Part shown: positions 1-50,757 of the stretch, piece by piece
Position numbering within the stretch: position 1 is the first letter of the stretch
How the letters are laid out: each line of letters opens with the position of its first letter
Source of the DNA: Hormiphora californensis
Lineage: Eukaryota; Animalia; Ctenophora
Assembly (NCBI GenBank): GCA_020137815.1
Contig: CM035351.1
Span: 2,976,001-3,040,000 of the forward strand
Direction of reading: 5' to 3'
DNA length: 64,000 bases
Notes under the pieces: generated by a model
Told to the model about the DNA's origin: nothing
The model's input: the letters and a program-made list of their open reading frames with translations, nothing else
Databases searched by the model: none
Position numbers and translations under genes: made by a program

Positions 1-242
1 TCAGAAAGAAAGGGTATCCATATGCTGAAGTCTTTTCGTCAAGCTGAGCTTTCTTTCTCTCCCTGAGTTTCTCTCATTCTCGCCCTCTCTCCTGTTTCCA
101 TCTGTCTGTCTCTATTCTCTCTCCTCTCTTTCTTGTCTTACAATACCCCATCTCCTAAGTCGATTTCTCTAAACGCTCCTCTCAGCCCGAATATATATTA
201 ACTACAATGGGAGAAGGTCACAGAAAAGCATACCCGCTATGT

Positions 243-301
<59 letters not shown>

Positions 302-1966
302 CTTTCTCTCTCTCTCTCTCTCTATCTCAATGTGCAGCCTGTCAGCGGGTTGAGCGTTGTGGCGGCAACATGGCGGCATGTGTCCACTTGACCAATATTT
401 ATGTAGGGAGAGATAGATAGAGAGAGATCCAGGCCCTATACTAGATGAGAGAGAGGGAGAGTGAGATATTGGGCGGACGAGGAGCATTTATGAAGAAGAA
501 GGAAGTTTGTTAGGTAAAAGTGTCAAGCCTTGAAGTGTTTCTCCCCTTACGGAAACCATACCGACAGGGAGGGCTCTCACTACCTCTCTCTCTCTCTTTT
601 TTCTCTATCCCTCTTTTTCTCTCTCTCTCTATCTCTCCCCCTGGCCTCTCTCTCTCTCACACGTGGTCGGTGCGTGTTGAAATGTGGCTTCGCCAAGCAT
701 TGCTCGATCAACTCACTGGGCAACTAGGCGGCCAGTCGTGATGTGCACAGGAGAATATATAATATAGTATTCTCAGGAAGCGTGCTGCTGTGCTGCACCG
801 AAAGTCTGTCCGTGTGACCCAATATTCCCCCGTGTTCGATGCAATAACCTTTCTCTTAACTACAAGAAATGGAATTATTGATCTTTTCTTTGTTTGTTTA
901 AGAAACAACCGGAGAAGGCCCGTTGAGAAGGCGAGGGGGTATGTGGAGCAGAAATGCAGGAAGAAAGAGGGAGGGAGAGAGTGAGTGAGATAAAGAGAGA
1001 GAGAAATGAAAGATGAGACGCACACATAGAGAAACAAGGCGACACAGAGAGCGAAAAGAAAGGAGTAGGGCCTACGAGGAAAACCCCAGAAAGAAAATAT
1101 CACACAGCATAATCTAAACCCCACCTGACCTCAAAACAGGCTTATTATATATCACGTCGCCCCCACCCTCACATAGAACAATAACTTCAGACTGGACAGA
1201 CTATGACTGTTTTATATGCCAATACTGTTTTTATGTAGCATAAATGCTTTTATATATCTCCCAAAAAGAGAGTGTTATGTAAAAGTTTAAAATGTTTTTA
1301 TTCTTTGAGTTGTGGTGTGCGATTATGTATAACGGTGTTAATTTTTTAACGAAATCGTGCTGTCCGTCTTCTTAGAGACTAAATATAATATAAACATATA
1401 TATATAAATATATATAATGCATGTAGGGCATTGTTTTTTGTGCAGTAGGAACTTAATGAGAGAACTATATATACCAAGGGGCATGCTTGTCGTAAGCATG
1501 CCTTATTAAAGCTGGAGGCTGTCAATCAATTTCCCCAAAAGAAGACACTTCTCTCCAGTATACCTATCTTTCTGTCTCTTCTTCCCCTCATTATATCTTG
1601 CTGGTACGTGTGCTGAATTTGTTACTTCCTTGAACAAAAATTTGGAAACCAAAATTTGAAGTTGCCATGTGTGGGATCAATTCTCTTACTCCTACCCCTC
1701 ATACTGCCAAATACAAATTCGTTGCGAAGGAGAGAGGAGGTACCATAGACTTCCATATAATGTTCTTCTAGTTCATTTATTTTTCAGAAACTATTCGCTG
1801 TTCCTTTTCCTAAAAAGTTAACGATTGGCAGCCCCGCTTTATCTTTAATTTACTTTGAGTCCTGTAAACAGAGCCAAAATTCCTCATTCCTTTTTCTCTT
1901 ACGGTTCTGCTTACAATATTGTTTACTTTTATATTTTTTGACGTGTCTCCGCGTGCTCTCTCTCAG

Positions 1967-2297
1967 TGTGGACATAGAGGAGTTTACACCGACAATTTCA
2001 GGTCGTCGGTTCCGGTGCCCACATTGCAACAAGTGTTATGCTTCGTATGACTGTCTCTCCCGACATAAGCGAATCCACACTGGTGCTAACAAGAAAACCT
2101 GTCCACAATGCTATCGATTGTTCTTTCGGGCCGATCACTTTAAGACCCACCTAAGTACATGTACCCGTAAAAATGGCATGAAGAAGCCCTCCGACTTTGA
2201 GGCTGAGGAGGAGTCCAGGATTATCTGGGCGAACTGCATGCACGATCCGGACATGTTCAAAGTCATGGGAAATAGAGATTTTCGAACCGCGATATAA
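1967..2297 (+). CDS. Two-zinc-finger terminal exon A (C2H2 + C2HC); no in-frame ATG before the fingers; putative alternative 3' exon
   Basis: ORF 1938-2297 encodes CPHC..HKRIHTG then CPQC..HLSTC. Pyrimidine tract + CAG at 1964-1966 (phase 2). An alternative TAG at 1975-1977 gives phase 1. Confidence 0.8.
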
Positions 2298-4972
2298 GCT
2301 CCCTTGCCCTTTCATGGGCCAAACGTAATGTATGACCGGACTCGTCTTTTGCAGTACGAAATCTTACTACTGCGTGATTTTTTAACTGACACTTCAACTG
2401 GCTAAACTCATTGCGAAAAGGTTATGTCACCTTTCGACTTTAAATTATAGGTCACGAGATTCCAAAAAGATTGCATCGAGCCTCTCCTATTATTCAGGAT
2501 AATTTGATACTCCTAAATGAACTTTTTGTCATAAAACATCAATAGGTTAATTAAGGAACATGAAATTGTGTTGAAAAATTGGAGACGTTGGATACAAATG
2601 TTGCATCCTGGCCTAAAATCAGAAGTCGAAACGAGAAATATTTTGACGCAATTCGAGTTTAACCAGTATCAGTTAAAAAGTATCACAAAGTAATGTGACC
2701 CGATGGCGATGAAGTCAGAGTGTGTTACTTTGACGATATACCGTCATCAGATCACGTACCAATAGAGAGAAAAAGATCAACGTGGGAAGAGTATATATAT
2801 ATATTTACATAGTGTCCTGTTGCTGATAGCTGAGTCTCAATCGATTGACCGTACCTAGAGTTCGACAGGAGTGGCCGTGTGTCATGTATTGACTGTCGAT
2901 TCTCTTTGCACACTCTTTGCGGTTGCAATCGAGACTAATTGTTTAAAGGATTAATTCTTTACAGGTGCACCCTAAAATTGTTTGATTGGTTGTTAGCACT
3001 GTAGTGCTTTATAACAGTATACAGATATATGTGATATAGATATAAATATGATATATAAATGTGACATCTCAAAAAGGGTGCATCATTTTTCTGCGATTTT
3101 ATGTATGTTTAAGTCATCTGACACTTGTTTTGGGTAATTATTTTCCCTCTTATATCCTTTATTACATACACTATATATATATATATAATGCTCCCACTGT
3201 CTGACCATTACGTTATGGCCCAGGGGGAGAGTGCAGCTGTATTTTAGCACCATGGTCTCCCCAATCCTCAGAAAACAGTTGATATATATATACATGTGGC
3301 ATTTTTTGTCAGGCTGATGTTACATACACAATATAATATATCAATAAGTTATACAATGTACAAAAGTTGAAATACTAACGGATATTGTTTGGTGCTCCTA
3401 GAAAAAGGTAACGTCCTTAGTATGTAAGATCACCCCAGGACACTTTAATATTTCGAGTAATGAAAGACAGTATCTATCTCAACTTTTCTGTGTGAACGAA
3501 TTTCGTTCTAGCACGTGATGTGCACAACTTAGCATGGATTGGTTGTCTAACCATGACCTCTGTCCCTGTTAAGTATTTGGCCGTTCTATCCTCAGATGTA
3601 TTTTTCCCTTTAAACCGAAGTCTTTTACATTATTCTTTGAAAAGACGTAGTGTCTATTATAACTAACGTCCACTCATTTGATTGACCTGTTGCTGTTTAC
3701 TAAGAAGATTTTTACAAAAGGTCCGTTTTTACAAGATACTTCGTCAACCTAGATAGTACGGCCACTATATATTGTTTGTTTGGAAACACCAAATCTAACA
3801 CTGTTTAATTTACGTCTCCAATTTCAAAATCCCAGAACAAGCTAGGTTTTGTTTGAATCATAGATTTGAACTAATCTAGCTTGAGCAATTGTGAAATTGG
3901 TCGCTGACCACTACTGTCGCGGTGGTTTCTGCTATTTTTTGTTTTATTATATCGGTCAGAACCTAGTAGGAGAAAAAAGAGAGATGGTATAGGATCTGTT
4001 ATAATACAGTATAATGCATTCACTTAATGAATGCCGCATTAAGTAAATTTTGGGTAAATACTACTACGAGTATATTACTTCATGTGATTTTTTTCAGTAA
4101 TCATATATCGTATTGTTATATATATTATATATCAGGAAACTTGCTTGGGCCAGTATGAAGTCCCGTCCTTTAATTGCACTATAGAATGCGTCCTCTTTGG
4201 ATACAGGTGTCCAGGATCTATCGGTACACTCTGTTCGCACACTTAGAGTAAGAGTGGATAAAACTTGACGTAAAATTTTGACATGAAATTTTGACACGAC
4301 CGATGGAGCAAAATAAATGATGGAATATGACTTCCCCGAAAGGTGTATCTTGAATTGATGTAGCACATTTTTTACTTTCGACCTTATCATTTTGCGTCAT
4401 TTACTTTGCTCCGTTTGCCTAGCGTATACTTTTTATCCACTCTTACTTTAAGAAAAGGTTTAATCTTCCAGTTTACAAGAGCCAACTTACGTCTTTGAGC
4501 ATGATTGAAACATAATACATTTTCCTAGATTCACTACCATCTGAATTCTAGGAAACCCGTTTTCGAGAGATACAAAAACACAGGCCATTCTTTCGCCGCT
4601 AGATCTTTTTCATAATATGGTTTACTGAATGAAATCAGTCGTCCAGGTGCAGTTTAGTGTGTGTGGATTGGTTTGGTTGTCGCTAGTAATGCAAATATGC
4701 ATTGGCATCACGGCATTCATCTGGTATTCCAATCGTTCACGTGTGTGGACATTATATAAATATGGTTGGGTTCAGAATCGATGGCCTCTCTAATCCACTC
4801 ACTGTTACATCTGGGGGAGAGATTTAGCCCTGCAGGCTCAGTTTCCCATATTGTGATTTACGTAACTAGTTGTGAGAGAAAGGGTCTTGTGAAGTATAAC
4901 TCATGAAAAAAGTGCAATTTTGTCATCATGTTTGTGTCACAGTGGAAACTGCATCGGAAAAAGGGTTGGTTC

Positions 4973-5136
4973 TAGGAGCCGGCGATATCGATATCGAATG
5001 GAATATCGATATTTCGAGTCGATATTATCGGATCAATATCGAATTGAGCCATTTTGATCCTGAAATATCGAATCGATATCGAAAACTTTTGATGATATCG
5101 AATCGAAAAATAAAAGTGGGATATCGCTGGCTCCTA
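4973..5136. mobile_element. Short MITE, TA-flanked, ATCGAT/GATATC-rich interior
   Basis: Terminal inverted repeat taggagcc(g/a)gcgatatc ... gatatcgctggctccta. Confidence 0.7.
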
Positions 5137-5401
5137 GTTGTTTCCCTCAAATATCTCGTTGTAGTCTCTGTGTACATCGTAAAACAAACTGTAAAAGATT
5201 TGTTGAGGCATAGTGTTTCTAAAATGCTTCTTGCCAGAAAAAACGCTTTATAATAAGGGAATAGTTCATCTTGACCAGGAACAAATATTAACAAGGCTAT
5301 TGCAATCTGAATGGACCCCTCTAACGATCTTCAGCAATTGTCACATTTACCATTGGGTGCTAAGGCCTCATTTCTGGGTAAGCGTGGTACCTGTATTTTT
5401 A

Positions 5402-5567
5402 GCCTGAGGCCAAAATCCATCCTTATGAATCTACTAGATTCACACGATTTTGGGAATACGATTGAAACGATTCAGATGCGATTTGAGCTTTTTTTTTGCT
5501 CAAAACTCGTCTGAACCGTTTTAACCGTATAGCCAAAATATTTGTTCTTTTGGGTTTAGCCTCAGGT
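5402..5567. mobile_element. Possible short MITE
   Basis: Imperfect TIR cctgaggccaaaatcca ... tgggtttagcctcagg. Confidence 0.45.
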
Positions 5568-6815
5568 TCAAAATGCAGGTGCTGCACCTACCCGAAAATC
5601 AGGCATTAGCACCTCATGTGACTATAATGGATATCGTTAGAGTGGTCCTTTCAGATTACAATGGCGTTGGAACACTCCAATATTTCTTGTTAAAAAACCT
5701 TGTTGTTTGCCGAATACAGACCAAAGAAGTAACCCATAGAGAGAGAGAAAAGAAGAGTTAGTCTTGATATGATGTTGTTTATCCTAAACTATTTTATCTC
5801 CCTGATACACACCGATCATGAACTGTGTCTGGTTCCGAGACGAATTCACTTTAATAGGGCTGATCATTAGCAGGGGCAATTTAGAACACACTGCTTAGAA
5901 ATGTAGCTAAGCAACCACATGTGAAAAATAAGGCTGAAGTATAAAAGTGCATTGTGGTATTTATCATTCCGACCGCAGCTCCAAGCCCTTTCCCCAATTA
6001 ACACCACTCCAATTTTACACTCCTCGAACCATACACAAGCTTGATATCGGTATAATGTTTTGATTTACTAACATTGAAAAGTCAATACTGAGAGTAATAA
6101 AAACTAGGAAAACACGAGTGATTTTGGTACTTGGAAGTATGAGAGAGATAGACCCCGCTGTTTGTGTTATACTTAATGTTATATGGGTCACTCGAAGAAG
6201 ACATGTATCTCCCCTTATGGCAAATATAGATTTATATATCGCTAATTAAAAGTAACATGTCTCTCTGTTGAAGGAGCTTAAATTCCTTTGATCTCATGTG
6301 TCTTTTTCGAATGGCCTTTTAAGAAAATGAAAGACGCCCCCTGTCCACAGAAAACACAAGTCTGAAATAGTGAGTATCACACACACGTTGCTGTGAGGCA
6401 GCACCACGTACGTTTAATGACGTTCGGCTGTCTCATTGCAATGTGATTTGTGCACTGCTCAATTACCAGAAGTTGCCGGTTATCATCTGATACAGTTTGT
6501 GAAAATGTTTTGACGGTTAAAAAATCCGCGATGACGTATATCAAAGGTGTTTCAAATGGTTCACAAAGAACTACTCTCTGTATAAAACATGTTCACTCCC
6601 TTAGGATAACTATATTTTCAGCAAATATTCCTTCCTGTACCACCAGCAAATCTATATTTCCCCCTGTTTTGTGTGAAGTAGAAATATGCGGTAAATTTTT
6701 TGGTGTAAAAGATCTGATTTTTGACCTTCGTACCAACTTATGAAAAAAAACTAATCATCGTATCTCAATGCACTTCATCTACCACTTGTTCCTTAGAACG
6801 CTACGAAATCACCTC

Positions 6816-6998
<183 letters not shown>

Positions 6999-7391
6999 TC
7001 CCTCCTTTTCATGTTGAGTCACATACACATTCAATGAAGCAAGCCAGTCACACACAGAGGTAGATCAACAAGGAGAGAGAGAGAGCAAGCACATTAAATA
7101 AGTGTGAAGGAACAGTGCAGTGTTCCGTAGAACTGTGTCGACTGGCCTAGTCGTGATGCAAGATAGAGAAGGAGAGAGAGAGAGAGAGATAGATGAGGAG
7201 AGGGAGAGAGAGAGAGATAGAAAGATAGATAAAGAGAGATGATAGCTGCTATAAAGAAGAAAGCCTTTTCATTAGTGATATAGCCTCGCTATTAATTCTC
7301 TTTGAACACGAAAGCTTAGCTTTAGATCCAAGTCCCGGCCCCACTCTCTCTATCTATCTATCTCTATCTCTCGTTCTCTCTTTCTCCCCCT

Positions 7392-7448
<57 letters not shown>

Positions 7449-8322
7449 CCTCTCTCTTTCTCCCTCTCTCTCTCGTCTAGACGTCACATACGATTTCAGT
7501 GATTTGGGGGAAGTTGCAGAAAAATATCATTATCGCTCCATTCTTTTTAAATCACTCTAATTCCGATCTAATTTTTACTCTCCACCATTTTATTCCTCCA
7601 TTCTGTCGATCTCTCTTTCAATTCAACTCTCCCCTTCTTTCTCTCCCTTTAATTTCTCTCTCCCCTCGTATTCTTGTTGTGGGCCCAAATCCCTGGAAAC
7701 AAGACATTGAGAAAGATATGTTGAGAGAGAGAGAGAGAGCAGCGATAGAGATAGAGAGAGAGAGAACACGGCGTACTCATTTTATCGATTGTGCGTTGTG
7801 TGAATGTGCGTGGTCTTCGGAACCTCTAAATTGGATTAGGTTCCCTCGTGTTTGGCCGAGTAAGGGATGGCGAGATAGAGGGGGTGGATTTTATTAGTAA
7901 CCGGCTAGGTCGGAGAGAGAGATCGAGAGATGAGAGATAGATAGAGATATGTAAAGGGAAGGTTCGTTACCAAGGCTGTGTGTGTGGTACGTATATAAAT
8001 ATACATCACATACGACCATATTGCATCTCTATCTATCTACCTCCTCTTTTCTCTATGGCCTACACGCAAAGGCATCAGCGACGCTGTGCTGCTATTTGAG
8101 TCTCACAACTTCCAATATGGCTTCCAGCCGATCTTGCAGGAGGGCGCGGACACTGCGCGTCATATTAAAGTGAACAGTTGTTTACCATTTGTTTGTTGCG
8201 CGCACTGTTCTAGGGACCTACTGGCTGGGATTGAATATTGCGGCCTTCGCAACGTGTATGTGGCTGCCTTCTCACTGTTTCCTGTGTATCATGTGTACAT
8301 ATACGAGAGAGGTTATAACGTT

Positions 8323-8923
8323 GGGGGGGTCCAGCCCTAAAAAAAGCTAAAGGTACCCTGATTTTGGTCGATAGCGTTTTTTATTTTAGCTTTTTTTAGC
8401 TTTTTTTAGCTTTTTTTAGCCCTACTTTTTATGTTTTTTCAGCATTCATCTTGACACTTTTCCATTAAATTTTCATCCTTCCGGACGTCTATTGACTGCA
8501 TTTGTTCATTTCCTGCACATTTTTTACCATAATCTACCGTTTATGTTCATACATAGCAATTTATGTATCCACCCCTACTGCTATTTTCTGGAGACATTTT
8601 TTCGATAAAAATATTATTCAAATTTGATAAAAATAGTTTAAAAAAGTTCAAAAAACGTTATAAAACGTTATAATAAAAGTTTAAAAAATTTGGCGTCAGC
8701 GGGATTCGAACCTATATGAATCCACTAAAAACTCAATTTTAGCTTTTTTTAGCTTTTTTTAGCTTTTTTTAGCCTCAAAAAAGCTAAAAAAAGCTAAATA
8801 AAGCTAAAAAAGCTAAAAAAAAGCTAAAAAAGGCTAAAAAAAGCTAAAAAAAGCTAAAAAAAGCTAAAGGTACCCTGATTTTGGCCGTTAGCTTAGCTTT
8901 TTTTAGGGCTGGACCCCCCCCCC
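8323..8923. mobile_element. MITE with G-run/C-run termini and subterminal 9-mer (AAAAAAGCT) arrays
   Basis: TIR gggggggtccagccctaaaaaaagctaa ... ttagctttttttagggctggaccccccc. AACGTT on both flanks. Confidence 0.8.
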
Positions 8924-9034
8924 AACGTTAAAAAATGTAAAATTTTGTCCCAAAAAAACTAAGTAACAAAACCGGTTGCACATGTGTGGGTAGCACCTCC
9001 ACCCTCCCTCATCCATCCCTGTCTACCTCCCCAG

Positions 9035-9342
9035 ATGTGGCGAACAGCACCTCGTCTTCGGGTTCAGATGAAAAGTTCTACCAATGCCCCTACTGCCCAA
9101 AGGTTTACACAACCACCCAATCACTCCATCGTCATAAGCACTCCCACACGGGGACTAACATGAAGGCGTGCCCGCTGTGCGGGAAGACTTCCTACCGTGT
9201 CGACAACCTCAAGTCCCATATAAGAAACTGTTACAAAAAGCGCCTCCGCCTGGAGACCCACCCGGGAGAGTTACCGATGGACACTGGCAGCGAGAATGGC
9301 ACAGCCCTTGGAGGGTCTGCCGCTGCAGAGGCGTGCGAGTAA
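9035..9342 (+). CDS. Two-zinc-finger terminal exon B (C2H2 + C2HC)
   Basis: Encodes CPYC..HKHSHTG then CPLC..HIRNC. Acceptor ctccccAG at 9033-9034 (phase 1). No in-frame ATG before finger 1. AATAAA at 9476-9481. Confidence 0.85.
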
Positions 9343-10241
9343 TTTCCCAACACGTCCCGGGGTTTAAAATGTGGTAATCATCCTATGGATGGACTTGCCA
9401 ACTCAGTGGAAGAGATTTAGAGAGGCGCTGGCGGCTCTCTCCGCCCCCCTGGAGAGAGTGAGAGTGAGAGAGAGCAATAAATTGTGGTGGAAGAAGAAAT
9501 TGAGTGGCGATGTATCTGTTAACTGAGATCTCGCTACAAGCGCGAGGAGAGTGCATTATTATAAAGTGAGATTTTTAATTCTAGGCTGTATTGGCGAACC
9601 TTACCTAACTCTTTATTACTTATATAAAACCCATAGAAACCCTAGCATGCATTTATTTGTTTCACGCGATGAAATTAGGCCCCCACACCCCCTTTCACCA
9701 TCTGTGTGTTGGGTGAGTGACCCACCCCCTCAACATCAGTTGTTTGAAAGGTGTGTTGGGGGCCTGATCAGGACGGAGTTGTCCTACTAAAAACGAGAAA
9801 GAAGAAACTACTGTTTGTGTTATATTATAACCCTGGATACATTATAGCATTTCTTTTACTTATTATCTTGCTTAATTTTATCCGACTTCTACTGCACTGC
9901 CATGGTCGTACGTGTCTGTTCGAGAGACATTAGTACGAGAGAGGGAGAAAGAGAGAAGCGGTGCAAACTCTCCTGTCCCATGGATGCATGCTTTATTATA
10001 TTGCGTGTGTATGGAGAGAGATATCTGAAATTTTTAACCGTTTTTTTTCAAAACTGTTCAGCTGTGAACTACACTATATATAATAGTTATATACACACAC
10101 TTCTTCAAAAGCCAGCTGAATCTCTTAATTATCATTTTCGGTATAATAAGAGAGAGTATTGCTTTTTCTACAGGTCTTTTAGTTTTACTCTTTTTATCCC
10201 ATCTGTTAGTAGTTAAAATGGCAGTGCCATTCTTTAGTTAA

Positions 10242-10287
<46 letters not shown>

Positions 10288-10759
10288 GAGTGAGAGAGAG
10301 AGAGAGTGAGAGAGAGGCATATCGTGGGAGGTACTGGTAGTTAGAGTCTAAATGTTAGACAGAGTATACGTCGGACGAATATCCAAGTCTAATGTAAAAC
10401 GAGATCAAGCACGACTTCGTAGGGACCAGCAAAGGAGGAGAGTAAGAGAGAGAGTGAGATGAGGGAGAGAGAGAGAGAGAGATATTGTTATATGATACAT
10501 TTTTCTGTATTCAACAGAGGTCTGAGTTGCAACTGTGTCATGTTTTCACCAGCCCCGTCCTTTCAATACCCTAAAAAGTGCGAGGATGGGATTGGTACGA
10601 AAGCTAGACACCTCAATATATATATGATAGTCACATGCAAACATGTTATAAACACTTATATATAAAGTTCGTTAGAATACACCAGTGCCTGCAATATACA
10701 TAATAATGTTTTGGAAGAATGAAGGAAATTTTCAGACAGGGGACTGTAACCTAAAAAGA

Positions 10760-12015
10760 TACCGTTCACCCGGACTTTGTTTATGTAACGGAAACTCAAA
10801 TATATTTTACACATATTGATATTCTTTATTTAGAGCAAAAACTAATTGAAATTAGTTCGCCAGAAAGGTGGCCCATTTTGAACTTACTCCTTCATTTCCG
10901 TCACCTTTGAGTTGAGGCTTCAAAGACATTGAGGTATCCATAAACTTTTCCGCCTTCAACTCAAAGGTGACGGAAATGAAGGAGTAAGTTCAAAATGGGC
11001 CACCTTTCTGGCGAACTAATTTCAATTAGTTTTTGCTCTAAATTTGTACTCTTTTTTGGTCGTTTGAGGTCATTTATGACCTCAAACAACTAAGCTAATT
11101 GTCAACTAAAGTGTTCAAATGTAATTCAAATGTACCTGGGTAATGGGTTGTAGGAAACTGATTTGACGAAATTTTCAAAATTCGACGTCGTTTTGACGTC
11201 GTGACTTCACACGTGACGTCACGACGACGTAAAAAAATATGACAGACTATTCGGTCAATGAAGCACTAAACGTGTGAAAAGTTTTAAAGGCCATGGTAGT
11301 CAAGAACTGAAGTTATTGCACGAAATGTGAGTTTTTATGTTGATTTTCACATCAAATTTTTGAGTTCCGACGCGTTTTAAGGTCTGAAAATGACAAGTTA
11401 GAAAAATTTGCGATAAAGTATCTGAAAGTTCAGACAATTTCCCACTAACGATTTTTCGTCAAATCAGGAATTAGAAAATGTCTTGAGGGTGCTAAAGGCG
11501 TTTGAAAATATTTGGTCTGAGATTTTTCAATGACGTCACTTTGTGACGTCATTACGCCCGTCATAGTGGACATTTTCACTTGAAACCTTAACTAATGCAT
11601 GCCCCGCACGATTTACTAACGGATAAAACTTGGTTCAAGTCTCTAGCTAGTATGGTTCAGGCTACAAGTGTTACACAGTGAAGCGTCTATAGCTATATAT
11701 CTATCTATATATCTATCTATCTATCTCTCGCCACACTGAATTTTCTGTTTTGGGGGTGGTGTCATAACTTGCGACCGGAATGAGCTAGCTACTTGAAATT
11801 TTTACCTTCAGTAGAGGTCTATGTGAAGCTTCTTAGTACCAAATTTCAGCCTCCTAGCTCATCTGGTTCCGGAGTTAGGAGGGGTCGAAAAGTGCCAATA
11901 TGGGCTTAAACTTCAAAATTGTTATATCTACGCTGTTGGCAAGCGGGCCCACTTTTTCGGGAAAAGTTTTTGGGGGGATGGGATGGGGCCACCTTTGCGC
12001 TTGCCAGCGCAGTGA
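10760..12015. mobile_element. Probable non-autonomous Helentron/DINE-like element containing the palindrome above (boundaries approximate)
   Basis: Internal (CTAT)n at ~11695-11725, an imperfect inverted repeat at 11765-11878 (gagctagct..ttgaaattt / aaatttcagcctcctagctc) and a short terminal hairpin gcgcttgccagcgc. The family assignment is an inference. Confidence 0.4.
10828..11043. repeat. Long inverted repeat (~88-bp arms, ~38-bp spacer)
   Basis: atttagagcaaaaactaattgaaattagttcgccagaaagg...gagttga is mirrored at ~10955-11043. Confidence 0.9.
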
Positions 12016-14228
12016 TATATACATATATATGTTAAATATCGGGTTAGAATCGAGTTAGAAATATCCTGATTTAGATAACAAGGTACTGCTGCACCCATGG
12101 ACCCCAAATTCACACTCACATCACACAACATCACACACATATTGTCACACTATGCTGGGATCATTCTCGATCTATCTGCCTCGTGTTTGTGTAACCCACA
12201 CTACTATCAGGGTGGGTGTCGCCCTCTCTTATAGTAACACGTTGTGAAATGAAGCGACGAAGATTGGAGAGTTGAGCGACACACTCCTCTTAGTTACACA
12301 TTCGCATTAGTGACTGAGCTCGCGTCGAGCTAATGTTGTGTGGGAGTGTGTGTTTTTGGGATCTTGGGTACCGGTATAATCTAGACGAAGGGTGTAAATA
12401 GTGTTAGTGGTTGTGTTGTCTGGTTTGGCTCCATTGCAACCTATTCTCGCTCCGCGAAGAATAGGCTCCCGGCCTGTGGACAGCAAGAACTCACGTGCGC
12501 GCGATGTAAAGCACGTTTTCAGCAGTGGGACTATCAAATCGCGCGCGATATACTGTTTTAGCAGGCATTTTTAGCCGACATAGCACTACCAAAATCCCAA
12601 TTACCGCCTCAATTGGCACTTTGATGTATCGGCGGGTATTTTCCCATACTCACAAGGCCATGACGATTCACCCAGTACCCGCAGATTGTCCCAGGACCGA
12701 GTAGGAGCTTGCAGCCAGGTCTTTAAAGAATTGCTCATGTTTAGCGTCAATTTTGACCCACTATTCCTCAAATGCTGATATTCGCGGGTATTTTCCGTAA
12801 AACTAGAGACAATTATCTGCCAGGAGCAACAAACGAGATGCAAATCGGTTCAGTAGTTCCTTGCAGCCAGGTCTTTGAAAAAGTTTGCTCTAAAATCAAT
12901 AACGCGCCGGAGGCCTAGATGTGAGATCGATCTCGGTCGCTGCGCGACCTCGATCTCACTCAGGCATCAATGTGGCCAATTGTCTGGTATGTATTTGACC
13001 CTGCTTCAATTTTCTCATTCCTCGATGAGAGTTGAACGGGTCGGGTACAAACTATAGACCAAAATTGAGAGAGAGGGAATGATAGAGATAGAGAGGGTAC
13101 ACTAGAGTTCAATTTGCAGCATTTTTGTTATTTTTAAAGCAAGAGTGAGAGGTTTTGGCTCTATTTTTGCTGAGTATGGGTACCCGAATGCACAAGATAT
13201 AGATAAGATAGAATGAGAGAGATCTGAGAGGTGACCTTATCTCGTATTCACCTTAGCTAAGGACATCTCGTGATCATAAAACTTCATCCATAAAAATCGT
13301 TTGGAGGGAATTTGCATAATTCGCATAATAATATCGTGTGATCGCTTACACCAAAGCTCAAAACACGATTCTTTATGCATCTTCCACTCCTAATTCGAGA
13401 GTCCGAGGTTTGGTATTATCACTCTAATCAAGCGAGATTCGGTTCACAGAGGGAGAGAGAGAGAGGCCAGGGTGAGAGAGAGAGATATAGAGAGAGAGGC
13501 CAGGGTGAGAGAGAGAGAGAAAGAGAGAAATGGTTATTCAATGCAGAAGCCGCTTAAACTCAGTCAAGTACGGAGCCATACGATTACTAACCGAGAGTTC
13601 ATATGGAGTGATTAATAATAAATAGCACAGTTCAGGCTTCCCAGGACAGAGAGTGAGAGAAATAGAGTGAGAGAGATAGAGTGAGAGAGTGAGAATGAGG
13701 CTATCTTTATATGTTCAAATATTATCATAATATAAGTTCCTAACAATTAACTCCACCCTTTGATTCTATGCCCGGAACATTTATTAACTTATTTAACTAC
13801 CTTAACTAACATAACAAATCCACAAATAATGAATCAGTCTTTACTCATGGCAGTATATGGACCGTAGAGCGAGGTGCAGGGGTACAGCTGTGAGTGGCAG
13901 TACACCCTCGTCCTATAACAGCTCATGAGTCCAGTACCGATACTATAAATTTCCAAATATTATTATTATTCATATAATTTTGTGTGTGAGTGTGTATTTA
14001 TATCTGATTAGCGCGGGAGGGGGAGATAGTTCCCTAGTCAGAATTAAATACGTATTTATTGCGCAAATACGTATTTAAATAGCGCGTAAATACGCTATAA
14101 ATACGTATTTAATACGTATTTTTTGCTAATAAATAAGTAAAAGCCGCGCATTTTGCTCGTGCTGACAATACTAGCGGTGAGTTTTATGCCCAGATTGCAT
14201 GCTTGAGCGCCTTACGTCGCGTAAAACG

Positions 14229-14644
14229 TCTCACCTTCCCTTTCCAGCCCTATCGCCAATTGCTACCCCCTTTCCCGTGCTGTAAACCTTCTGTGAAACA
14301 TCTCACCTTCCCTTTCTAGCCCTATCGCCAATTGCTACTCCCTTTCCCGTGCTGTAAACCTTCTATAAAACATCTCACCTTCCCTTTCCAGCCCTATCGC
14401 CAATTGCTACCCCCTTTCCCGTGCTGTAAACCTTCTATAAAACATCTCACGTTCCCTTTCCAGCCCTATCGCCAATTGCTACCCCCTTTCCCGTGCTGTA
14501 AACCTTCTGTAAAACATCTCACCTTCCCTTTCCAGCCCTATCGCCAATTGCTACTCCCTTTCCCGTGCCGTAAACCTTCTGTAAAACATCTCACCTTCCC
14601 TTTCTAGCCCTATCGCCAATTGCTACTCTCTTTCCCGTGCTGTA
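14229..14644. repeat. Minisatellite, 72-bp unit, ~5.8 copies
   Basis: Unit tctcaccttccctttccagccctatcgccaattgctaccccctttcccgtgctgtaaaccttctgtaaaaca. It appears as a 24-aa repeat in ORF 14332-14607. Confidence 0.95.
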
Positions 14645-15448
14645 ATTGGTACGTAGTATAACTACATAGGTTTATTAAAATGATTATAGCATTATATATT
14701 GTTATTGGTTCTGTGAACAAAAGTAGAGGGTGTGTGCGTGTGTGAGAGGTTGATATCTTCGTTCTTCAGGAGAAAGGATGTACAGAGTCGGAGTCGTGGT
14801 ACGGGACAAAATGTGAGAGAGAGTGCTTTTGAGAGCTTTTTATTAGTATTATATTATATACATACAACATAATGAGTCATATATTATATAAACTGGATGT
14901 AAAACAAACCTACTAAAACATGATATATTTTGTTGGTGCATTGTGTGGTAGAGGTATTGGTCAAATCAAACCTAATATATCCTTTTTTAAACACAGCGAT
15001 TGTCCCCATACGTTATTATGAAATACTATTATTATTATACATTCAAGAGAATAGATATAGCGGCTTTCTGAGTTATACCATTGTTACTGTATCTCACCTG
15101 TTATTGAACTTTTCAAATTCGGTCTATAAATTCTCCCATACATCTCTGGGTTTTCAACAGCGGAGAAACCGGTTTATGTTGGCAAAATATGTGCCACAAT
15201 CTTTGAATTCTCGTTAAAATTAAATCTGACTGCCACTGATTGGCTATCTGTCTCTCTCTTGCATGTCTCTCTCTCTATCTCTCTCTCTGTTCTCCTTCTC
15301 TCTCTCTCTCTCTAACCTTGCATGTTCCTCAGCTTGTCCCCTCAGCAGCTTGGTACACTCACTCTATAAATGGTATGTGTTGAAATGCATGGTGCCTGCA
15401 CACCACCACACCCCGCCGCCCCAGATCGCTCTCATCCCCCATTCTCAG

Positions 15449-15822
15449 CAGTGGTTCCAAGTGGAGGACCGCGGAACACGGCCGCCACTACCAAGGCATT
15501 CCAGTGCGAGGAGTGTCCCAGGTCGTATAGTAGTAAGTATGCGTTGGTGAGGCATGCCCGGCAACACACAAACAGCCACCTGCGGGCGTGTGTCTTCTGC
15601 GGGAGGACAAGTACACGTGCGGATATAATCAGGGTTCACATGATGAACTGTGTTAAGAAGTATGTGAAGGCACCCTCACCGGCCGAGAAGGAGGTGGTGG
15701 TGGCCCCTGTAGCCGGTCTACAGGACCCCGCTCAGTATCTCCTGGCCATTACCAAACTGATGGAGGAACAGGCGGCAGCGGGGAGCAGCAGCTCTGCCGA
15801 ACAGGTCCAGGGTGACTCCTAA
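15449..15822 (+). CDS. Two-zinc-finger terminal exon C (C2H2 + C2HC)
   Basis: Encodes CEEC..HARQHTN then CVFC..HMMNC. Acceptor attctcAG at 15447-15448 (phase 1, NAGNAG). Possible upstream 27-nt phase 1-1 microexon 15346-15372 ending at GTATGT. An in-frame ATG at 15370 is an alternative start. AATAAA at 16387-16392. Confidence 0.85.
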
Positions 15823-17279
15823 AACTTGGAGAGAGTGAGAAATCTCACAAACTGGGAGTGAGAATGTGAGCTATTATATGGGTTAATTGTGAGCGAGTCA
15901 GACAGTTTCTAGGGTCTTAGCACTTGGCTGTATATATATTCGAGGGACTCCTTTGGTGTCCTGAATTAGGAATTAGAAAACAAAAGAGCTAGAAAGTGAC
16001 CGAATCGTGAAGAACACTGACAGATATAATCGCGGAGTAGGTTTAGCATGACGACGTGATGAAAGAGATATCAAATACTCCCAGTAAAAATACTGTGGAA
16101 AATATAAATTTATAATGAGAGATGATACTGTTTGATATATATCTAGTTTGGTAGATCTAAACGGATAAATCTACTGATCTCTTATTGAGTAAGAGGTGGT
16201 TCTCATCTCTTTTAGTTAACTAAATAACTGACTAAAAGACGAATATATGTTTATTTTTAGGTAGGAATTACTTTAGATTTACTTTATTGTATAGTCTAAT
16301 TCTTGAGATTAAGTTAGTTGTGTGTGTGTGTGGGTGGAGAGTGGAGTTTTTATACGTAGCTATATTCTTTAACTGTATAAAAATAGAATAAAAGCCCTTG
16401 TTTACAAGATATATCCGCACTGACCTGTGTGGATAGCTTTAGTTATAATAGCTTTTGAATCTATTTTATAAAAATATAAACCTCGGGCTTCTCTTTTTAA
16501 TCTTTTATCAATTTCTATATTGTTTTACTAATAATGTTGGTCTTTTTAGATGCCGAGTTTTAATATCTTCCTCTATAGTCTCTAAGCCCATATTTTAGAT
16601 TTTTTCAAAGGAATCTAAAATGTGTTGAAGCTTACGAATGTTCTCTAGTTTGTGTGTGTCAATAATGTTCATTTTCTGTCTGTTTACATGTTTGTATCTC
16701 TGTCTGTGTGTCAGTTTGTCAGTGTCTTCCTCCCTAACTATTCCTCAGTTAACCCAACTTGATCATGCACCGTGTGATCCATCATCCCAAGAAGACGAGA
16801 AGCCGATCCCTGCACTTTTGATCTGAGAGAGAAAGAAGATTTTGATTTAAAAGCACCCTTTCCCCACTATTGGTAAGTTGAACTGTGTGTTTTGTGATTT
16901 AGTAGGACTCTTTTATTCTTAGAATGAGTGAAACTGAGTGCTGCAAATAGACAATGTAGGAAGGGTGCCTCAAGATAAATGTCTTCGAAAACTATAGGGA
17001 TATTAAACATGGGACTGGCATGGTACGGCTACATACAGTCATTGATAGAAATTGAGGCTTAGTGGGCTGATATGTATATTGACACGTCTGCTAGGTGGCG
17101 TGTTCCCGGCGTGTTACTTCCTTGTTAATGTTGGACACTGGGCAACAAAAAAGTGATATCTCACTTTCGTAGCTATACAATTGATAGGAAAATATCAGAA
17201 AATTATCCCAGATTATTCCCATGGCCCCTACCAACTAACCCCTCACACCAACACTAACACTCCACCCATTTTCCCTCAG

Positions 17280-17467
17280 AGCGGTCTAAGAGGAGGATAG
17301 CCTGCCACATCTGTGGGAAGACGTTCTCAGTAGCGTGCAGCCTGAACCGTCACCTGAGAATACACGTTGGATTCCGAGTCTCCTGTCCAGTGTGTCACGC
17401 TCTATTCTCAAGGAGAGACAACCTTATGAGTCACTTCAGAAAGGCTCATGCCTCCGTTTTCAAGTGA
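17280..17467 (+). CDS. Two-zinc-finger terminal exon D (C2H2 + C2H2), missed by the ORF track
   Basis: Acceptor ttccctcAG at 17278-17279 (phase 1). Hand translation: RSKRRIACHICGKTFSVACSLNRHLRIHVGFRVSCPVCHALFSRRDNLMSHFRKAHASVFK*. Confidence 0.85.
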
Positions 17468-17716
17468 CTTGTTGTGTGGACAATATAAATTCAATTGAGT
17501 ATCTCTTGAAAGAGATAATTGAGAGATAATTTCCCGGGAGAGAGAAGGACTAGAACATCTGATGAGATTGAGAAATGAGAGTGCTTGACATTTCGTTTGT
17601 GAACATTTTGGTGCCCCTAATTCTTGTGTACAACAGGGGGGGTCGTCATGTTAATGTTAATGTTTCATGAAAATTTTAACAAGATTGATTGCATTATGTT
17701 CTAACATAATGCTGAA

Positions 17717-18119
17717 TTTCCCTGCCGTGTGAATCTATGAAGAAAGGAAATCATGACTAGATCCGCTATAGCAGCGAGCGGGACACAAAATCCCGATCAT
17801 TTATATATCATACAAACAGTATAGAGCAAATCCTTGTGTTTTAGTAGCACTAAATTGAGCGCCACGCCGCCACATTGCGCGCCACACATTTCCTGAAAAC
17901 GTGCCAATGAAGTGGTTTATGAAGGAGCAGCTCGTAACTGTGTGCGCGGCTCTAGTTGCTACACCGTTGCCCTCGCAACGAAAGTGTGACCAAAATGGTC
18001 CCTCTACCGATTAGTTAGTATACCAAAATGTCGTTTTCGAATTCTAACCCTGCTATGCCTTTTTACAAAGTAAAAAGGCATCCGGGTGAATGCCTTCGGC
18101 ATTCACCCGGGCAGGGAAA
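17717..18119. mobile_element. Nested small element with sub-TIR and terminal hairpin (Helentron-like)
   Basis: tttccctgccgtgtgaat ... attcacccgggcagggaaa. 13-bp-stem hairpin at 18082-18110. Confidence 0.55.
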
Positions 18120-18415
18120 AAATGTTAACATTAACATTATTAACATTATTAACATTATTAACATTATTAACAAAAAAAGAAGCTTTTTTAAGTCTTTTTG
18201 AAGCTTTTAATCCCGCTTTAATAGATCATTTGCGTTATTTTTGACAATATTATACGTACTACCCATCCAATCAACACTGATATACAGTCGAACCCCGATT
18301 TAATGGCCCCCGATTTAGTGGCACCCCCGATTTAGTGGCAGGATTTTTTCCCCAAAAATTTTTTTGAATTTTTTTTTGTGAATTTTTTTTGAATTTTTTT
18401 GACCCGCCACTAGTT

Positions 18416-19556
18416 GCGGTAATATGACGAAAATTTTCGGCATAATCGTTCTAAAGCTAATTCCACTTCTAGGGTACTCTATAGGGTCCCTAGAATCAAC
18501 CCCTGAAGTTGTCGCAAGATCGGCGATGAAGAACTTGCCTTAATTGGGCCTAATTGGTTACAGGGTGCTTTCAGCCTGAAGCCAAAACCATAAGTACCCT
18601 TAAAATAGGAGTATAGACAAAACCGAGGGCACTAAAGTGATCAGCGTCCTCGCATTAGTGGGGGTAGGTGCTGGAATTAAGTCTCTATCTCATCTGGTTA
18701 ATTAGTTAATTGGATAATTAGATCTGCACATAGCCGTTTTCGGCCATATGGCTATAGCCACTTAGGAATGGTTTAGAGATATTTCACGGGTGCCATCTTG
18801 TAGACAATGGCCAAGTGTGGGTGGTCGACGTCGGACTTTTATGCTCTATCTCCAACCGTTTAGCCGTTATTTGGTTTGCTCAAAATCGGGCTTTTTTACC
18901 GTTTTTTTTGCTCATTTTGAGCACCTTTAAAGCCAAATAACGGCTAAACGGTTGGAGATAGAGCTTAAAAGTCCGACGTCGACCCCCCATAACTTGGCCA
19001 TTGTCTACAAGATGGCACCAGTGAAATGTCTCTAAACCATTCCTAAGTGGCTACAGCCATATGGCCGAAAACGGCTATGTGCAGATCTAATTATCAAATT
19101 AACTAATTAACCAAATGAGATAGAGACTTAATTCCAGCACCTACCCCCACTAATGCGAGGACGCTGACCATTTTAGTGCCCTCGGTTTTGTCTCTACTCC
19201 TTTCCTAACATAGCTATAGCCATATGGCCAAAAACGGCTATGCGCAGAGCTGATTATCCAATTATCTGATTAACCAGATGAGATAGAGACTTAATTCCAG
19301 CACCTACCCCCACTAATGCGAGGACGCTGATCACTTTAGTGCCCTCGGTTTTGTCTCTACTCCTATTTTAAGGGTATTTATGGTTTTGGCTTCAGGCTGA
19401 AAGCACCCTGTAACCAATCAGGCCCAATTAATACAATTTCTTTATCGCCGATCTTGCGACAACTTCAGGGGTTGTTTCTAGGGACCCTATAGAGCATCCT
19501 AGAAGTGGAATTAGCTTTAGAACGATTATGCCGAAAAATTTTCGTCATATTACCGC
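18416..19556. repeat. Giant foldback palindrome (~460-bp left arm; right arm has an extra internal duplication)
   Basis: gcggtaatatgacgaaaattttcggcataatcg... is mirrored by ...cgattatgccgaaaaattttcgtcatattaccgc. The centre is near 18880-18925. Confidence 0.9.
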
Positions 19557-22711: not shown

Positions 22712-46538
<23,827 letters not shown>

Positions 46539-47540: not shown

Positions 47541-47762
47541 TAGTGGAAGCTCTTACGGTAATTCCCACGCCCCGTGGGAAAGTTTTCGACCGTGGGAAAG
47601 TTTTCAAAGCGTGGGAAAAGAGAGATACATACAATAACATTAAAAAAATAATTATTTTTTTAAAGTTATTGTATGTATCTCTCTTTTCCCACGCTTTGAA
47701 AACTTTCCCACGGTCAAAAACTTTCCCACGGGGCGTGGGAATTACCGTAAGAGCTTCCACTA
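47541..47762. mobile_element. 222-bp near-perfect palindromic MITE, TA-flanked, containing eight CGTGGGAA motifs
   Basis: tagtggaagctcttacggtaattcccacg ... cgtgggaattaccgtaagagcttccacta. Confidence 0.88.
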
Positions 47763-47928
47763 AAGGGGCCTGCAACGTATGCCAAGAGTTTTTCAAAAAT
47801 CGCTCTCTGATTTGTTGTGTCGCCTGCCACGGGTCACTGTAAACTGTTTCTGTATGTGTGGCATTCTGCTGAAATTTATCGATTATAATATGAAATATTT
47901 TGTAATCTGTACAGCGATTTTCTAGGAA

Positions 47929-50757
47929 ATGCAAGTCAAGAAAAAGAGGAAAGTTGTTTCAGACGATGTTCTACTGTCCTACTCTCGTGACAGTTATCTG
48001 GAGGAGCAGCTAAATCAACTCTACTCTAGTATAGACGGGACCTGTACCTCCTCATCAGTCGAAACTGTTACTTCCTTCTTGAAATCACTGAAAGCAACCA
48101 AAAAGAAATCGATAGCAGAGGTTGTTGCTGGGAAAAAGAAATCTCCATTCCCGGACTGGTTAACTGTTCCAAATGGAGTTTTCAAGTTTGCCCCTCCCGA
48201 GAGAGTAGAACTTGCTGGCGGTATGGCTTGTGGAAGTTTGGTAAAAAGTAGGTCTGAGGTAGATCTTCTAGTTCTCATCCCAGACTCAGTATTCCAGGAG
48301 AAAGACTACATAAATGCTCGGTATAGCTGTAAACGGTTACTGTACCTCAATCACTTGTCTCTAAAACTAAGCAAGACACTAGACATTGTGAAACGTTGTT
48401 CGTTAGTAGGAGATGATGTGCTTTGTCAGACACTAAAAGTAACACTGAACACTGGGGAGGTCTTCCACCTGATACCAGTCATATCGGAGAGTGTGTTCAA
48501 GGTCAGCCAGCTGGAGGCAGATAAGAATTGTATCCGGCCAGCCAAGGTGTTCTCATCTGGTAGTTGTACTGAAGTCTCCACTCCTCACTACAACTCAACT
48601 GTTGTGTCTGATATCCTATCTGAGAAGATCTTATCGTTCTTCCCAGTTGTTGCAGGGAGCACTAATCTGCAGAAAGCCCATGCCCTTCTGAAGGTATGGT
48701 GTAGAAGGAAGGGGTTGGTGATCACATCTCATGATCTTCTGGTTCTAATGGAAGGGTTCTATTCAGCAGGTGTTATCACTCAGGACACCCCACTTTTGAC
48801 AGTGCTAAAACAAATCTGGGGTGCCTTACCAGGGCTGAAGAGGCTGGATGAAAACCAGAAAGCAGAGACAGATCTCCACACACGGGACATACTAAACGCT
48901 AAGGAATCAAACTTGGCTGCTGTGTTTACCGAGCCCATCTTATCACCACTCCAACAATACGATGTAGTATACACCATCTCTAGCCCAGTTCCAACTGAGA
49001 GGATACCACTCGAGGACAGGTTGCAGTTTGTTGGGGATCCAGTAGCAGGAGCGGTCACATTGATCCATCGTACACTAACTGCTGCCTACACAGACAGGGT
49101 CCATAGAGTCAAGGTTTGGAGCGAGGGAGAGAGGATACGGATAGCACTGATCATCAACAAAGCCAACTCAACCCGTCAAATTGACAAGGGTCCCCCTGCC
49201 GATGACAGAGAGGGAGGGGTGCAATTTAGGGCGTTTTGGGGTGATAAAAGTGATGTTCGAAGGTTCCAGGATGGTTCCATTGTGCTCGCTGTTCTGTGGT
49301 CTGGTGAGACAGCCGGCGATCGGAGGAGTATTGTTAACCAAATAACAGGATATGTTCTAGAGCGACATGTAGGAGTGAGTGATGTGGAGGAGATGAGTAT
49401 TGACACATCATCACTTCTCTCCGCCTCCTGGTATAAAGGAGAGGGGGACGAGCAGGCGCACAAAATCAAAAGTGCATTTGCTGATTTGAGTAAGATACTC
49501 CGGTCTCTCAACCAGGTGCCTCTATCAATAACATCTCTAATCGCAACATCCCCTGCCCTCCGTCATACACAACTGTATCCTGAGCAGCAGTATTCCAACA
49601 CCGTTACAGGACGACCTGTTAGGGTCCATGAGATAGTGGGGAAGTTTGAGGCGAGTGGAAAATGGCCAGAGGATGTACGAGCTATACTGAGGTTGAGAAC
49701 AGCCTTCTATCTGGCTATAAAGGAGGAATTGAAGAGTCTGCACATTACCGCTAAAGTGAACCCTGATTATCTGGATATAGCTCGGGATGGTTTCATTTTC
49801 AGGCTCCGATTCTTTGTTCAGAAGGAGGCAAAACTCCGTGATTCAAACATCTCATTCTGGCAACCGTCTACAGGGGAGGAGCTGCGTTGTCAAATGGAGA
49901 GGACACCTTATGTAACTGCTCACCTAGGCAGTCTGTGTAGTGAGCACCCTGCTATGCCCCTGACTGCTAGGTTGTTGAAGAGATGGATTAGTGGCCACCA
50001 CCTCTCTCTCCGTGTCCCAGAGCTATTCTGTGAGATGGTCACTGCCTATCTCTTCCTTACCTCAGAACACCCTCCTCTAACCTCAACTGCTGGATTCTTC
50101 CGCCTGTTGTGCCTCCTAGCCTCCCACGACTGGCAACTGTACCCTCTTGTTCTCAACTTTAGGGAAGAACTCTCTGCTGAACTTCTAACCAAGTTAGATA
50201 ACTTTATAACTGATAGAAAGCAGTATCCCTCTGCAGCTATTGTGTGTCCTGGGAATGAGGGATCCGAGCTAACTGTGGCATCCCCGGATAAGAGAACCCT
50301 GGGTCTGCTGACTCGCCTGGCAGAGCAGTCCTTGAAACACACGGGGGAGATGGGCGAGATCTTCCAGTCGGATCTGAGATCGTCTTGTAATGCCCTAATT
50401 CACCTGAAATCTCTCACTAAAGAGGTTACTGGTAGCGTCAGACACCACTCTAAGGGGAGTTATTTCCCAGGATCCGTTGGGTTCGATCCCCCTGCACGGT
50501 ATGTCTCCGATCTCACAGCTGCGTATGGGGAGATGTTTAGTTTTCTGTACAGTGAAGGGAATCCTGAAGTAGTCGGGGTGGTGTGTCGAGTGAGCGGGGT
50601 AGAGGAGAGCAAGTTTACCGTCAACAAGAGTCAACTGAGGTGTCCTGTTGGTGAGGAAATGATGGTGAAGTATAATTTAGATGCTGCCCTCTCTGATTTT
50701 ACACTCCTGGGTAAGGGACTGGTGAAGAGTGTCGAGGTACTAAAGATGGATGTTTGA
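47929..50757 (+). CDS. NOL6: Nucleolar protein 6 / UTP22 (Nrap domain), intronless
   Basis: 942 aa ORF with FQEKDYINARY..KRLLYL, TPHYNS, FRAFWGDKSDVRRFQDGSI and FEASGKWPED motifs typical of Utp22/NOL6. Confidence 0.93.
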   Translation: MQVKKKRKVVSDDVLLSYSRDSYLEEQLNQLYSSIDGTCTSSSVETVTSFLKSLKATKKKSIAEVVAGKKKSPFPDWLTVPNGVFKFAPPERVELAGGMACGSLVKSRSEVDLLVLIPDSVFQEKDYINARYSCKRLLYLNHLSLKLSKTLDIVKRCSLVGDDVLCQTLKVTLNTGEVFHLIPVISESVFKVSQLEADKNCIRPAKVFSSGSCTEVSTPHYNSTVVSDILSEKILSFFPVVAGSTNLQKAHALLKVWCRRKGLVITSHDLLVLMEGFYSAGVITQDTPLLTVLKQIWGALPGLKRLDENQKAETDLHTRDILNAKESNLAAVFTEPILSPLQQYDVVYTISSPVPTERIPLEDRLQFVGDPVAGAVTLIHRTLTAAYTDRVHRVKVWSEGERIRIALIINKANSTRQIDKGPPADDREGGVQFRAFWGDKSDVRRFQDGSIVLAVLWSGETAGDRRSIVNQITGYVLERHVGVSDVEEMSIDTSSLLSASWYKGEGDEQAHKIKSAFADLSKILRSLNQVPLSITSLIATSPALRHTQLYPEQQYSNTVTGRPVRVHEIVGKFEASGKWPEDVRAILRLRTAFYLAIKEELKSLHITAKVNPDYLDIARDGFIFRLRFFVQKEAKLRDSNISFWQPSTGEELRCQMERTPYVTAHLGSLCSEHPAMPLTARLLKRWISGHHLSLRVPELFCEMVTAYLFLTSEHPPLTSTAGFFRLLCLLASHDWQLYPLVLNFREELSAELLTKLDNFITDRKQYPSAAIVCPGNEGSELTVASPDKRTLGLLTRLAEQSLKHTGEMGEIFQSDLRSSCNALIHLKSLTKEVTGSVRHHSKGSYFPGSVGFDPPARYVSDLTAAYGEMFSFLYSEGNPEVVGVVCRVSGVEESKFTVNKSQLRCPVGEEMMVKYNLDAALSDFTLLGKGLVKSVEVLKMDV

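Follow-up and report, generated by a model that had tools for sequence, protein, structure and literature searches.

The swapping of DNA-binding ends on a single transcription factor has been described mainly for arthropod genes of the TTK-BTB type. Of the 20 isoforms of Drosophila lola, for example, 17 have a constant N-terminus followed by a finger end that no other isoform has (10.1101/132027; PMC11426971). We report here a locus of comparable outline in a ctenophore, Hormiphora californensis. In a 64,000-nt stretch of contig CM035351.1 (assembly GCA_020137815.1, positions 2,976,001 to 3,040,000 of the forward strand; hereafter the window, numbered from its first letter), four units (A to D), each encoding a pair of zinc fingers, lie in a row, and on balance we favour the view that a single gene for a zinc-finger transcription factor uses B, C and D as its alternative last exons. 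An earlier note, made from the sequence alone, had likened all four units to lola and mod(mdg4) and had supposed them to lie outside arthropods, which, the host being a ctenophore, they do.

The likeness to lola is in the row of last exons, the distinct short zinc-finger ends and the lack of a start of their own; the differences are that the host is a ctenophore, that only four ends are in view and that a constant part and a common donor would have to be supposed for them. The order of finger types also differs, the atypical finger coming first in lola, whereas the ctenophore array has a C2H2 finger and then a C2HC finger. With mod(mdg4) the array would share a constant part provided with many variable DNA-binding ends, and possibly also variable exons that have RNAs of their own (PMC12692577), but the ends of mod(mdg4) are mostly FLYWCH domains (PMC11426971), unlike the C2H2 and C2HC fingers found here, and some of its exons lie on the opposite strand and all of its isoforms are trans-spliced (PMC12692577), neither of which is seen in the window. 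Tramtrack, broad and fruitless, also arthropod BTB-ZF genes, likewise have a few two-finger ends reached through alternative last exons; they belong to another lineage, no BTB was found in the reading frames of the gaps between our units (see below), and the likeness is that of a generic finger fold. Since the TTK-type BTB, which forms the constant portion in lola and mod(mdg4), is reported not to be found outside arthropods (PMC11426971), membership of the lola/mod(mdg4)-type BTB-ZF family seems, by this comparison, unlikely for a ctenophore locus. Ctenophore-specific C2H2 proteins are known in the loop-anchor proteins CTEP1 and CTEP2, of which CTEP1 differs from the units in having a multi-finger array (PMC12221973); identity with either is unsupported, none of five diagnostic unit motifs occurring in the text-searchable supplements of that paper. 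In the open-access literature (subscription papers and bioRxiv supplements being outside the scope of the search) no description of such a locus in ctenophores or annelids was found.

A six-frame scan of the window found four co-oriented finger pairs (eight finger motifs), each followed by a stop codon; all are on one strand, and no opposite-strand unit was found in the window. The units and the features associated with them are as follows.

1967 to 2297, + strand: unit A, a last-exon-like frame with C2H2 and C2HC fingers; acceptor 1966 is in phase 2, and the phase-1 alternatives 1977 and 2001 are weak.
9035 to 9342, + strand: unit B, a candidate last exon with C2H2 and C2HC fingers; phase-1 acceptor 9034, third of 1,252 AG sites.
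9476 to 9481, + strand: AATAAA behind B, a candidate poly(A) signal.
15261 to 15391, + strand: three GCATG (RBFOX-type) motifs before C, with six in the same place in metagenome contig L001 (a post hoc observation).
15425 to 15822, + strand: unit C, a candidate last exon with C2H2 and C2HC fingers, under purifying selection; phase-1 acceptors 15424 (first of 1,252), 15448 and 15451.
16387 to 16392, + strand: AATAAA behind C, a candidate poly(A) signal.
16407 to 16872, + strand: stretch covered by RNA contigs and ending in the GTAAGT donor that is spliced to D; there is a possible acceptor at 16748 inside it.
16873 to 17279, + strand: 407-nt GT..AG intron, from contigs of two of three RNA-labelled runs.
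17280 to 17467, + strand: unit D, a candidate last exon with two C2H2 fingers; phase-1 acceptor 17279, second of 1,252; RNA cover continues to 17555.

The first cysteines of the finger pairs are at 2016 (A), 9085 (B), 15505 (C) and 17303 (D), and the reading frames end at 2297, 9342, 15822 and 17467, respectively. The strict two-finger pattern, present four times in the window, was absent from 100 composition-preserving local shuffles, and each unit scores above the Pfam zf-C2H2 cut-off of 25.2 bits (26.7, 38.4, 30.0 and 44.4 bits). Scan, shuffles and Pfam thus agree with the earlier description of four co-oriented two-finger units with stops, and there are four units in a row of paralogous terminal exons that each consist of a finger module and a stop. 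Also correct were the assignment of finger 2 to the C2HC type in three units (A, B and C, which have their linker length in common too) and to the C2H2 type in one (D), and the statement that no in-frame ATG precedes the fingers in A, B or D; in C there are two (15370 and 15385), both upstream of its acceptors, so that none of the four units has a start codon between acceptor and fingers. Any two units have 14–24 of 58–59 finger residues in common, D being the most divergent (14–20/58 identical to the others). As seven relatives of C found elsewhere (six distinct types) are identical to it at 50–58 of 59 residues, the units are old paralogues that have been maintained separately.

Acceptors were ranked with a weight matrix made from 11 acceptors of the ACSL gene in the same window, located by means of the Mnemiopsis orthologue; the finger exons were not used. 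Among the 1,252 AG sites on the + strand of 1–19,500, the three highest scores went to 15424 (C), 17279 (D) and 9034 (B), all of them in phase 1 for the finger frame, and three independent acceptors would have the same phase by chance about once in nine times. When each of the 11 true acceptors was left out in turn, scores ranged from -3.1 to 20.4, ten being at 6.0 or above and one at -3.1. The ranking bears out the proposed phase-1 entry of B, C and D; for C the site originally chosen, 15448, is indeed in phase 1, but it is not the best one, which is 15424. Three top-ranked acceptors of one phase, leading to selected finger exons that have no start, are most simply accounted for by alternative last-exon choice. 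The constant coding exons would then be found before the start of the window, the last of them having a phase-1 donor, and the choice of one acceptor, together with the poly(A) site that follows (a candidate AATAAA is present downstream of B and of C), would provide the same front part with different, putatively interchangeable two-finger DNA-reading ends.

Unit C is under strong purifying selection. Its orthologue in the metagenome contig L001, the only one among the eight loci returned by the metagenome scan, differs at two of 57 residues, with pS 0.86 and pN 0.06 (synonymous and non-synonymous differences). The best upstream AG in L001 is again in phase 1, although the linker is 18 nt shorter than that of C; there is no in-frame ATG, and the ATGs at 15370 and 15385 are absent. 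Before the acceptor of C there are three copies of GCATG in 250 nt (reached in seven of 5,000 shuffles), and before its orthologue in L001 six copies in 257 nt (reached in none of 5,000), a cluster that was noticed first and tested afterwards. No other 5-mer has two or more copies before C in the window together with three or more in L001, though the introns do not align, and no copy of GCATG lies within 250 nt of any other unit. GCAUG is an RBFOX element (PMC11874969), and C would probably be regulated by a putative RBFOX-type repressor acting on the cluster. A further group of three GCATG motifs is present at 1419–1500, about 500 nt upstream of A. DNA of the organism coded B covers all 30 bins of 14700–18000, on separate contigs. 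Marine metagenome rows with a small share were left out of account.

For D there is evidence from RNA. Three RNA-labelled runs and one DNA run supplied contigs for 14700–18000, and one contig each of X16 (depth 4.9; labelled RNA by guess) and X19 (depth 2.6) skips the 407-nt GT..AG intron 16873–17279, which the DNA run does not skip. The acceptor of D at 17279 is therefore real and is used in RNA. The earlier note would have had D joined to a common phase-1 coding donor, but the junction in these two low-depth contigs is with a local non-coding one. The upstream partner contains TGA and TAA in the frame of D and no in-frame ATG after the last stop. The possible acceptor at 16748 would give a 124-nt exon with stops in all three phases, and the X16 contig is unspliced across it. 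The join does place an in-frame ATT in strong context (ACT ATT G) just before D, but to call this a start codon is speculation. The RNA cover sets in at 16407 and 16507, shortly after the AATAAA of C at 16387 (depth 2–5), and C itself, in the three RNA-labelled runs at their low depth, is uncovered except for one 39-nt partial match; in run X22 neither C nor D is covered, missing cover being no proof of absence. RNA that starts behind the poly(A) signal of C without covering C is a weak hint that bears on two of the rival explanations considered below. If D is one of several alternative ends, the local splice from 16872 would probably be non-productive, arising by read-through past the poly(A) site of C, as a poison exon or from a separate precursor.

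The constant part was sought both in the window and in protein databases. None of the 77 + strand stop-to-stop frames of at least 45 aa outside the finger exons in 1–17,300 reached a Pfam cut-off, so that these gap frames contain neither BTB nor any other domain above cut-off, and the sole weak match among them is a CT-repeat frame. The gaps between units show no DNA similarity to each other at E 0.01 (the best protein match has E 0.019), no paralogous 5' exons were detected in them, and the donor candidates enumerated there lead to repeat-derived or unconvincing peptides. Rfam gave no matches in 1–22,000, and CpG profiles defined no promoters. A spliced full-length form was not retrieved by protein searches, and exact look-ups of six window frames matched nothing. 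A profile of D, B and A returned generic multi-finger proteins among the best 120 of 720 matches, and the ESM Atlas and PDB yielded nothing beyond generic finger families. Finger 2 of C, searched against representative sequences, gave 78 matches, five of them at E 1e-10 or better and with no common N-terminus; among 484 candidates for longer proteins containing C there were two matches, both of them read-through gene calls.

The recognition helices of finger 1 are those that the earlier note quoted (SYDCLSRH, TTQSLHRH, SKYALVRH and VACSLNRH), and finger 2 keeps Arg-1 and Asp+2, as claimed there. The variability of finger 1 had been overstated, however, since Arg at +6 is kept in all four units, and the varying part of the reading surface is smaller than was supposed. 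This pattern of Arg+6, Arg-1 and Asp+2 resembles that of Tramtrack69, and the usual finger–DNA code predicts for the four units a shared GG core, with differences arising mainly through small flanking residues. All the ends would be expected to have in common the GG-contact core (finger 1 Arg+6, finger 2 Arg-1/Asp+2) and, differing at flanking positions, may also differ in DNA specificity.

Several of the observations weigh against alternative last exons of a single gene. The acceptor model is small, and entry in one phase is seen in three of the four units: the best acceptor of A, 1966 (score 4.1), is in phase 2, its phase-1 options are weak (1977, -5.3; 2001, -6.5), and a phase-1 donor joined to 1966 would meet a stop after two codons. 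The TAG at 1975–1977, through which A had been supposed to enter in phase 1, scores -5.3 against 4.1 for 1966 and is unsupported; A is an old paralogue, which could be joined only by way of an additional small exon, a donor in phase 2 or a weak acceptor. The constant exon was found neither within the window nor among protein-database relatives, short private exons may be present in the 6–7 kb gaps, and introns of at least 9–17 kb are needed, whereas those of the ACSL gene in the window are of 66–1,970 nt. The GCATG cluster is, as noted, post hoc. A set of 1.84 billion representatives yielded five close relatives of C, all of them read-through gene calls whose N-termini are unrelated, and in some relatives (P0001/P0127, with a Met in the C linker, and P0002, which begins eight residues before the finger) C could stand alone. 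Finally, the only RNA junction found joins D to the local donor 16872 and gives no ATG-started finger protein.

Several of these points could be taken to mean that the units are four separate small genes, tandem duplicates that each have a short 5' exon of their own or a spliced leader and start in private ATG exons or at near-cognate codons. We judge this unlikely, although there are points in its favour: in two of the three RNA-labelled runs the donor joined to D is local and private to it, with the ATT before D as a speculative start, RNA cover begins right behind the AATAAA of an uncovered C (weak evidence at depth 2–5), some relatives of C have a Met near the finger, and tandem duplicates would inherit a common phase anyway. 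Leader trans-splicing is, moreover, common in ctenophores, but the published leader has no ATG (PMC8527503), and direct leader splicing consequently yields no finger proteins in this species. The published leader motif has no match in the window; a leader joined to B would open a 42-aa off-frame peptide, the spliced form of D has no in-frame ATG after its last stop, no paralogous 5' exons were detected, and the linker Met is not conserved across the relatives of C. An in-frame ATG after the acceptor is lacking in A to D and in L001, a Met being found in one group of C relatives, in contrast to the NOL6, GALNT-like and (presumed) seryl-tRNA-synthetase-like (SARS) genes of the window, which have their ATG 2–11 nt after a pyrimidine tract and AG. 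Private upstream ATG exons had been named in the earlier note as evidence that would contradict it; D does have a private local donor, but the donor exon is without ATG. The deviating phase of A would also suit a mixed locus, in which the phase-2 unit A closes one gene, a second gene has B and C, and perhaps D, as its alternative ends, and D is becoming a non-coding or poison-exon-controlled appendage. The divergence of D (14–20/58), its C2H2 second finger and its non-coding join would be in keeping with this, but the frame and acceptor of D are intact and the acceptor is strong, A, B and C have their C2HC second finger and linker length in common, and a 45-nt candidate exon at 1559–1603 leaves the phase unchanged and so neither rescues nor excludes A; such a locus is, we think, distinctly unlikely.

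Joining in trans after the manner of mod(mdg4), in which every exon would be transcribed as a precursor by itself and then spliced to a constant RNA of separate origin, seems very improbable. The cis introns required would be unusually long for this genome, RNA over D starts behind the poly(A) signal of C without cover of C (again weak), and the variable exons of mod(mdg4) have independent promoters (PMC12692577). However, nothing was found in favour of a trans-spliced constant exon: the four units have the same strand and nothing demands it, the cis donor on the D precursor would consume the acceptor of D, and free acceptors in ctenophores would be expected to receive a spliced leader (to judge from PMC8527503). 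That the units are non-functional relics or chance frames is scarcely credible. C is uncovered in three RNA-labelled runs and neither RNA nor orthologues speak for A and B, but no finger pairs arose in 100 shuffles, the four frames are intact, C has pN 0.06 against pS 0.86, and D is transcribed and spliced, so that for C and D this explanation is largely refuted. The earlier proposal of one locus with alternative last exons is retained for B, C and D (same-phase top acceptors, no start of their own, no domain exon between them, C conserved together with its acceptor) but not for A, which has another phase.

Other features of the window may be briefly mentioned. In its last exon the ACSL gene has 73% identity to Mnemiopsis leidyi and 75% to Bolinopsis microptera, and at most 59% to other named animals among the best 120 of 4,795 matches. 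The host is accordingly a ctenophore of a species other than these two, and an arthropod host, with which the array would have been an ordinary BTB-ZF gene, is rejected. The ACSL gene contains two tandem paralogous 161-nt exons on the - strand (60801–60641 and 60614–60454), 26 nt apart, both entered in phase 1 and left in phase 0; the first has a GC donor, and the two are probably mutually exclusive. Vertebrate ACSL1 and ACSL6 have alternative gate-domain exons in the corresponding region. Long single-frame genes are present for a glycosyltransferase-2/ricin-lectin GALNT-like protein (27679–29352, - strand) and for NOL6/Nrap (47926–50754, + strand). The acceptor-like sites, a pyrimidine tract and AG 2–11 nt before the start ATG, of NOL6 (47925), the GALNT-like gene (about 29350, - strand) and the gene at about 52305 (presumably the SARS gene) would, as expected, fit leader trans-splicing. 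A 72-nt minisatellite and several long inverted repeats (14150–14717, 10828–11043, 18430–19541 and 47541–47762) are likely to be remnants of small transposons. Outside the window, locus L008 (533–2545 of JAAUYA010284663.1) has within 2.5 kb three complete phase-0 three-finger units resembling last exons and two partial finger units; this array is lola-like and unrelated to the ctenophore one.

If B, C and D are indeed alternative ends of one transcription factor, this design either arose independently or is very old, and it is present in a lineage that has its own neurons and its own lineage-specific finger proteins; the locus would also test in what way regulated alternative acceptors coexist with widespread leader trans-splicing. 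A more far-reaching version, which we consider distinctly improbable, is that the locus is a ctenophore, non-BTB counterpart of lola and mod(mdg4), with RBFOX-type control over the joining of a constant part to interchangeable two-finger ends, some of them supplied in trans by exon RNAs transcribed separately. Were that so, the deepest-branching lineage of animals, in which free acceptors otherwise receive a spliced leader from the spliceosome, would possess a modular DNA-binding isoform system.

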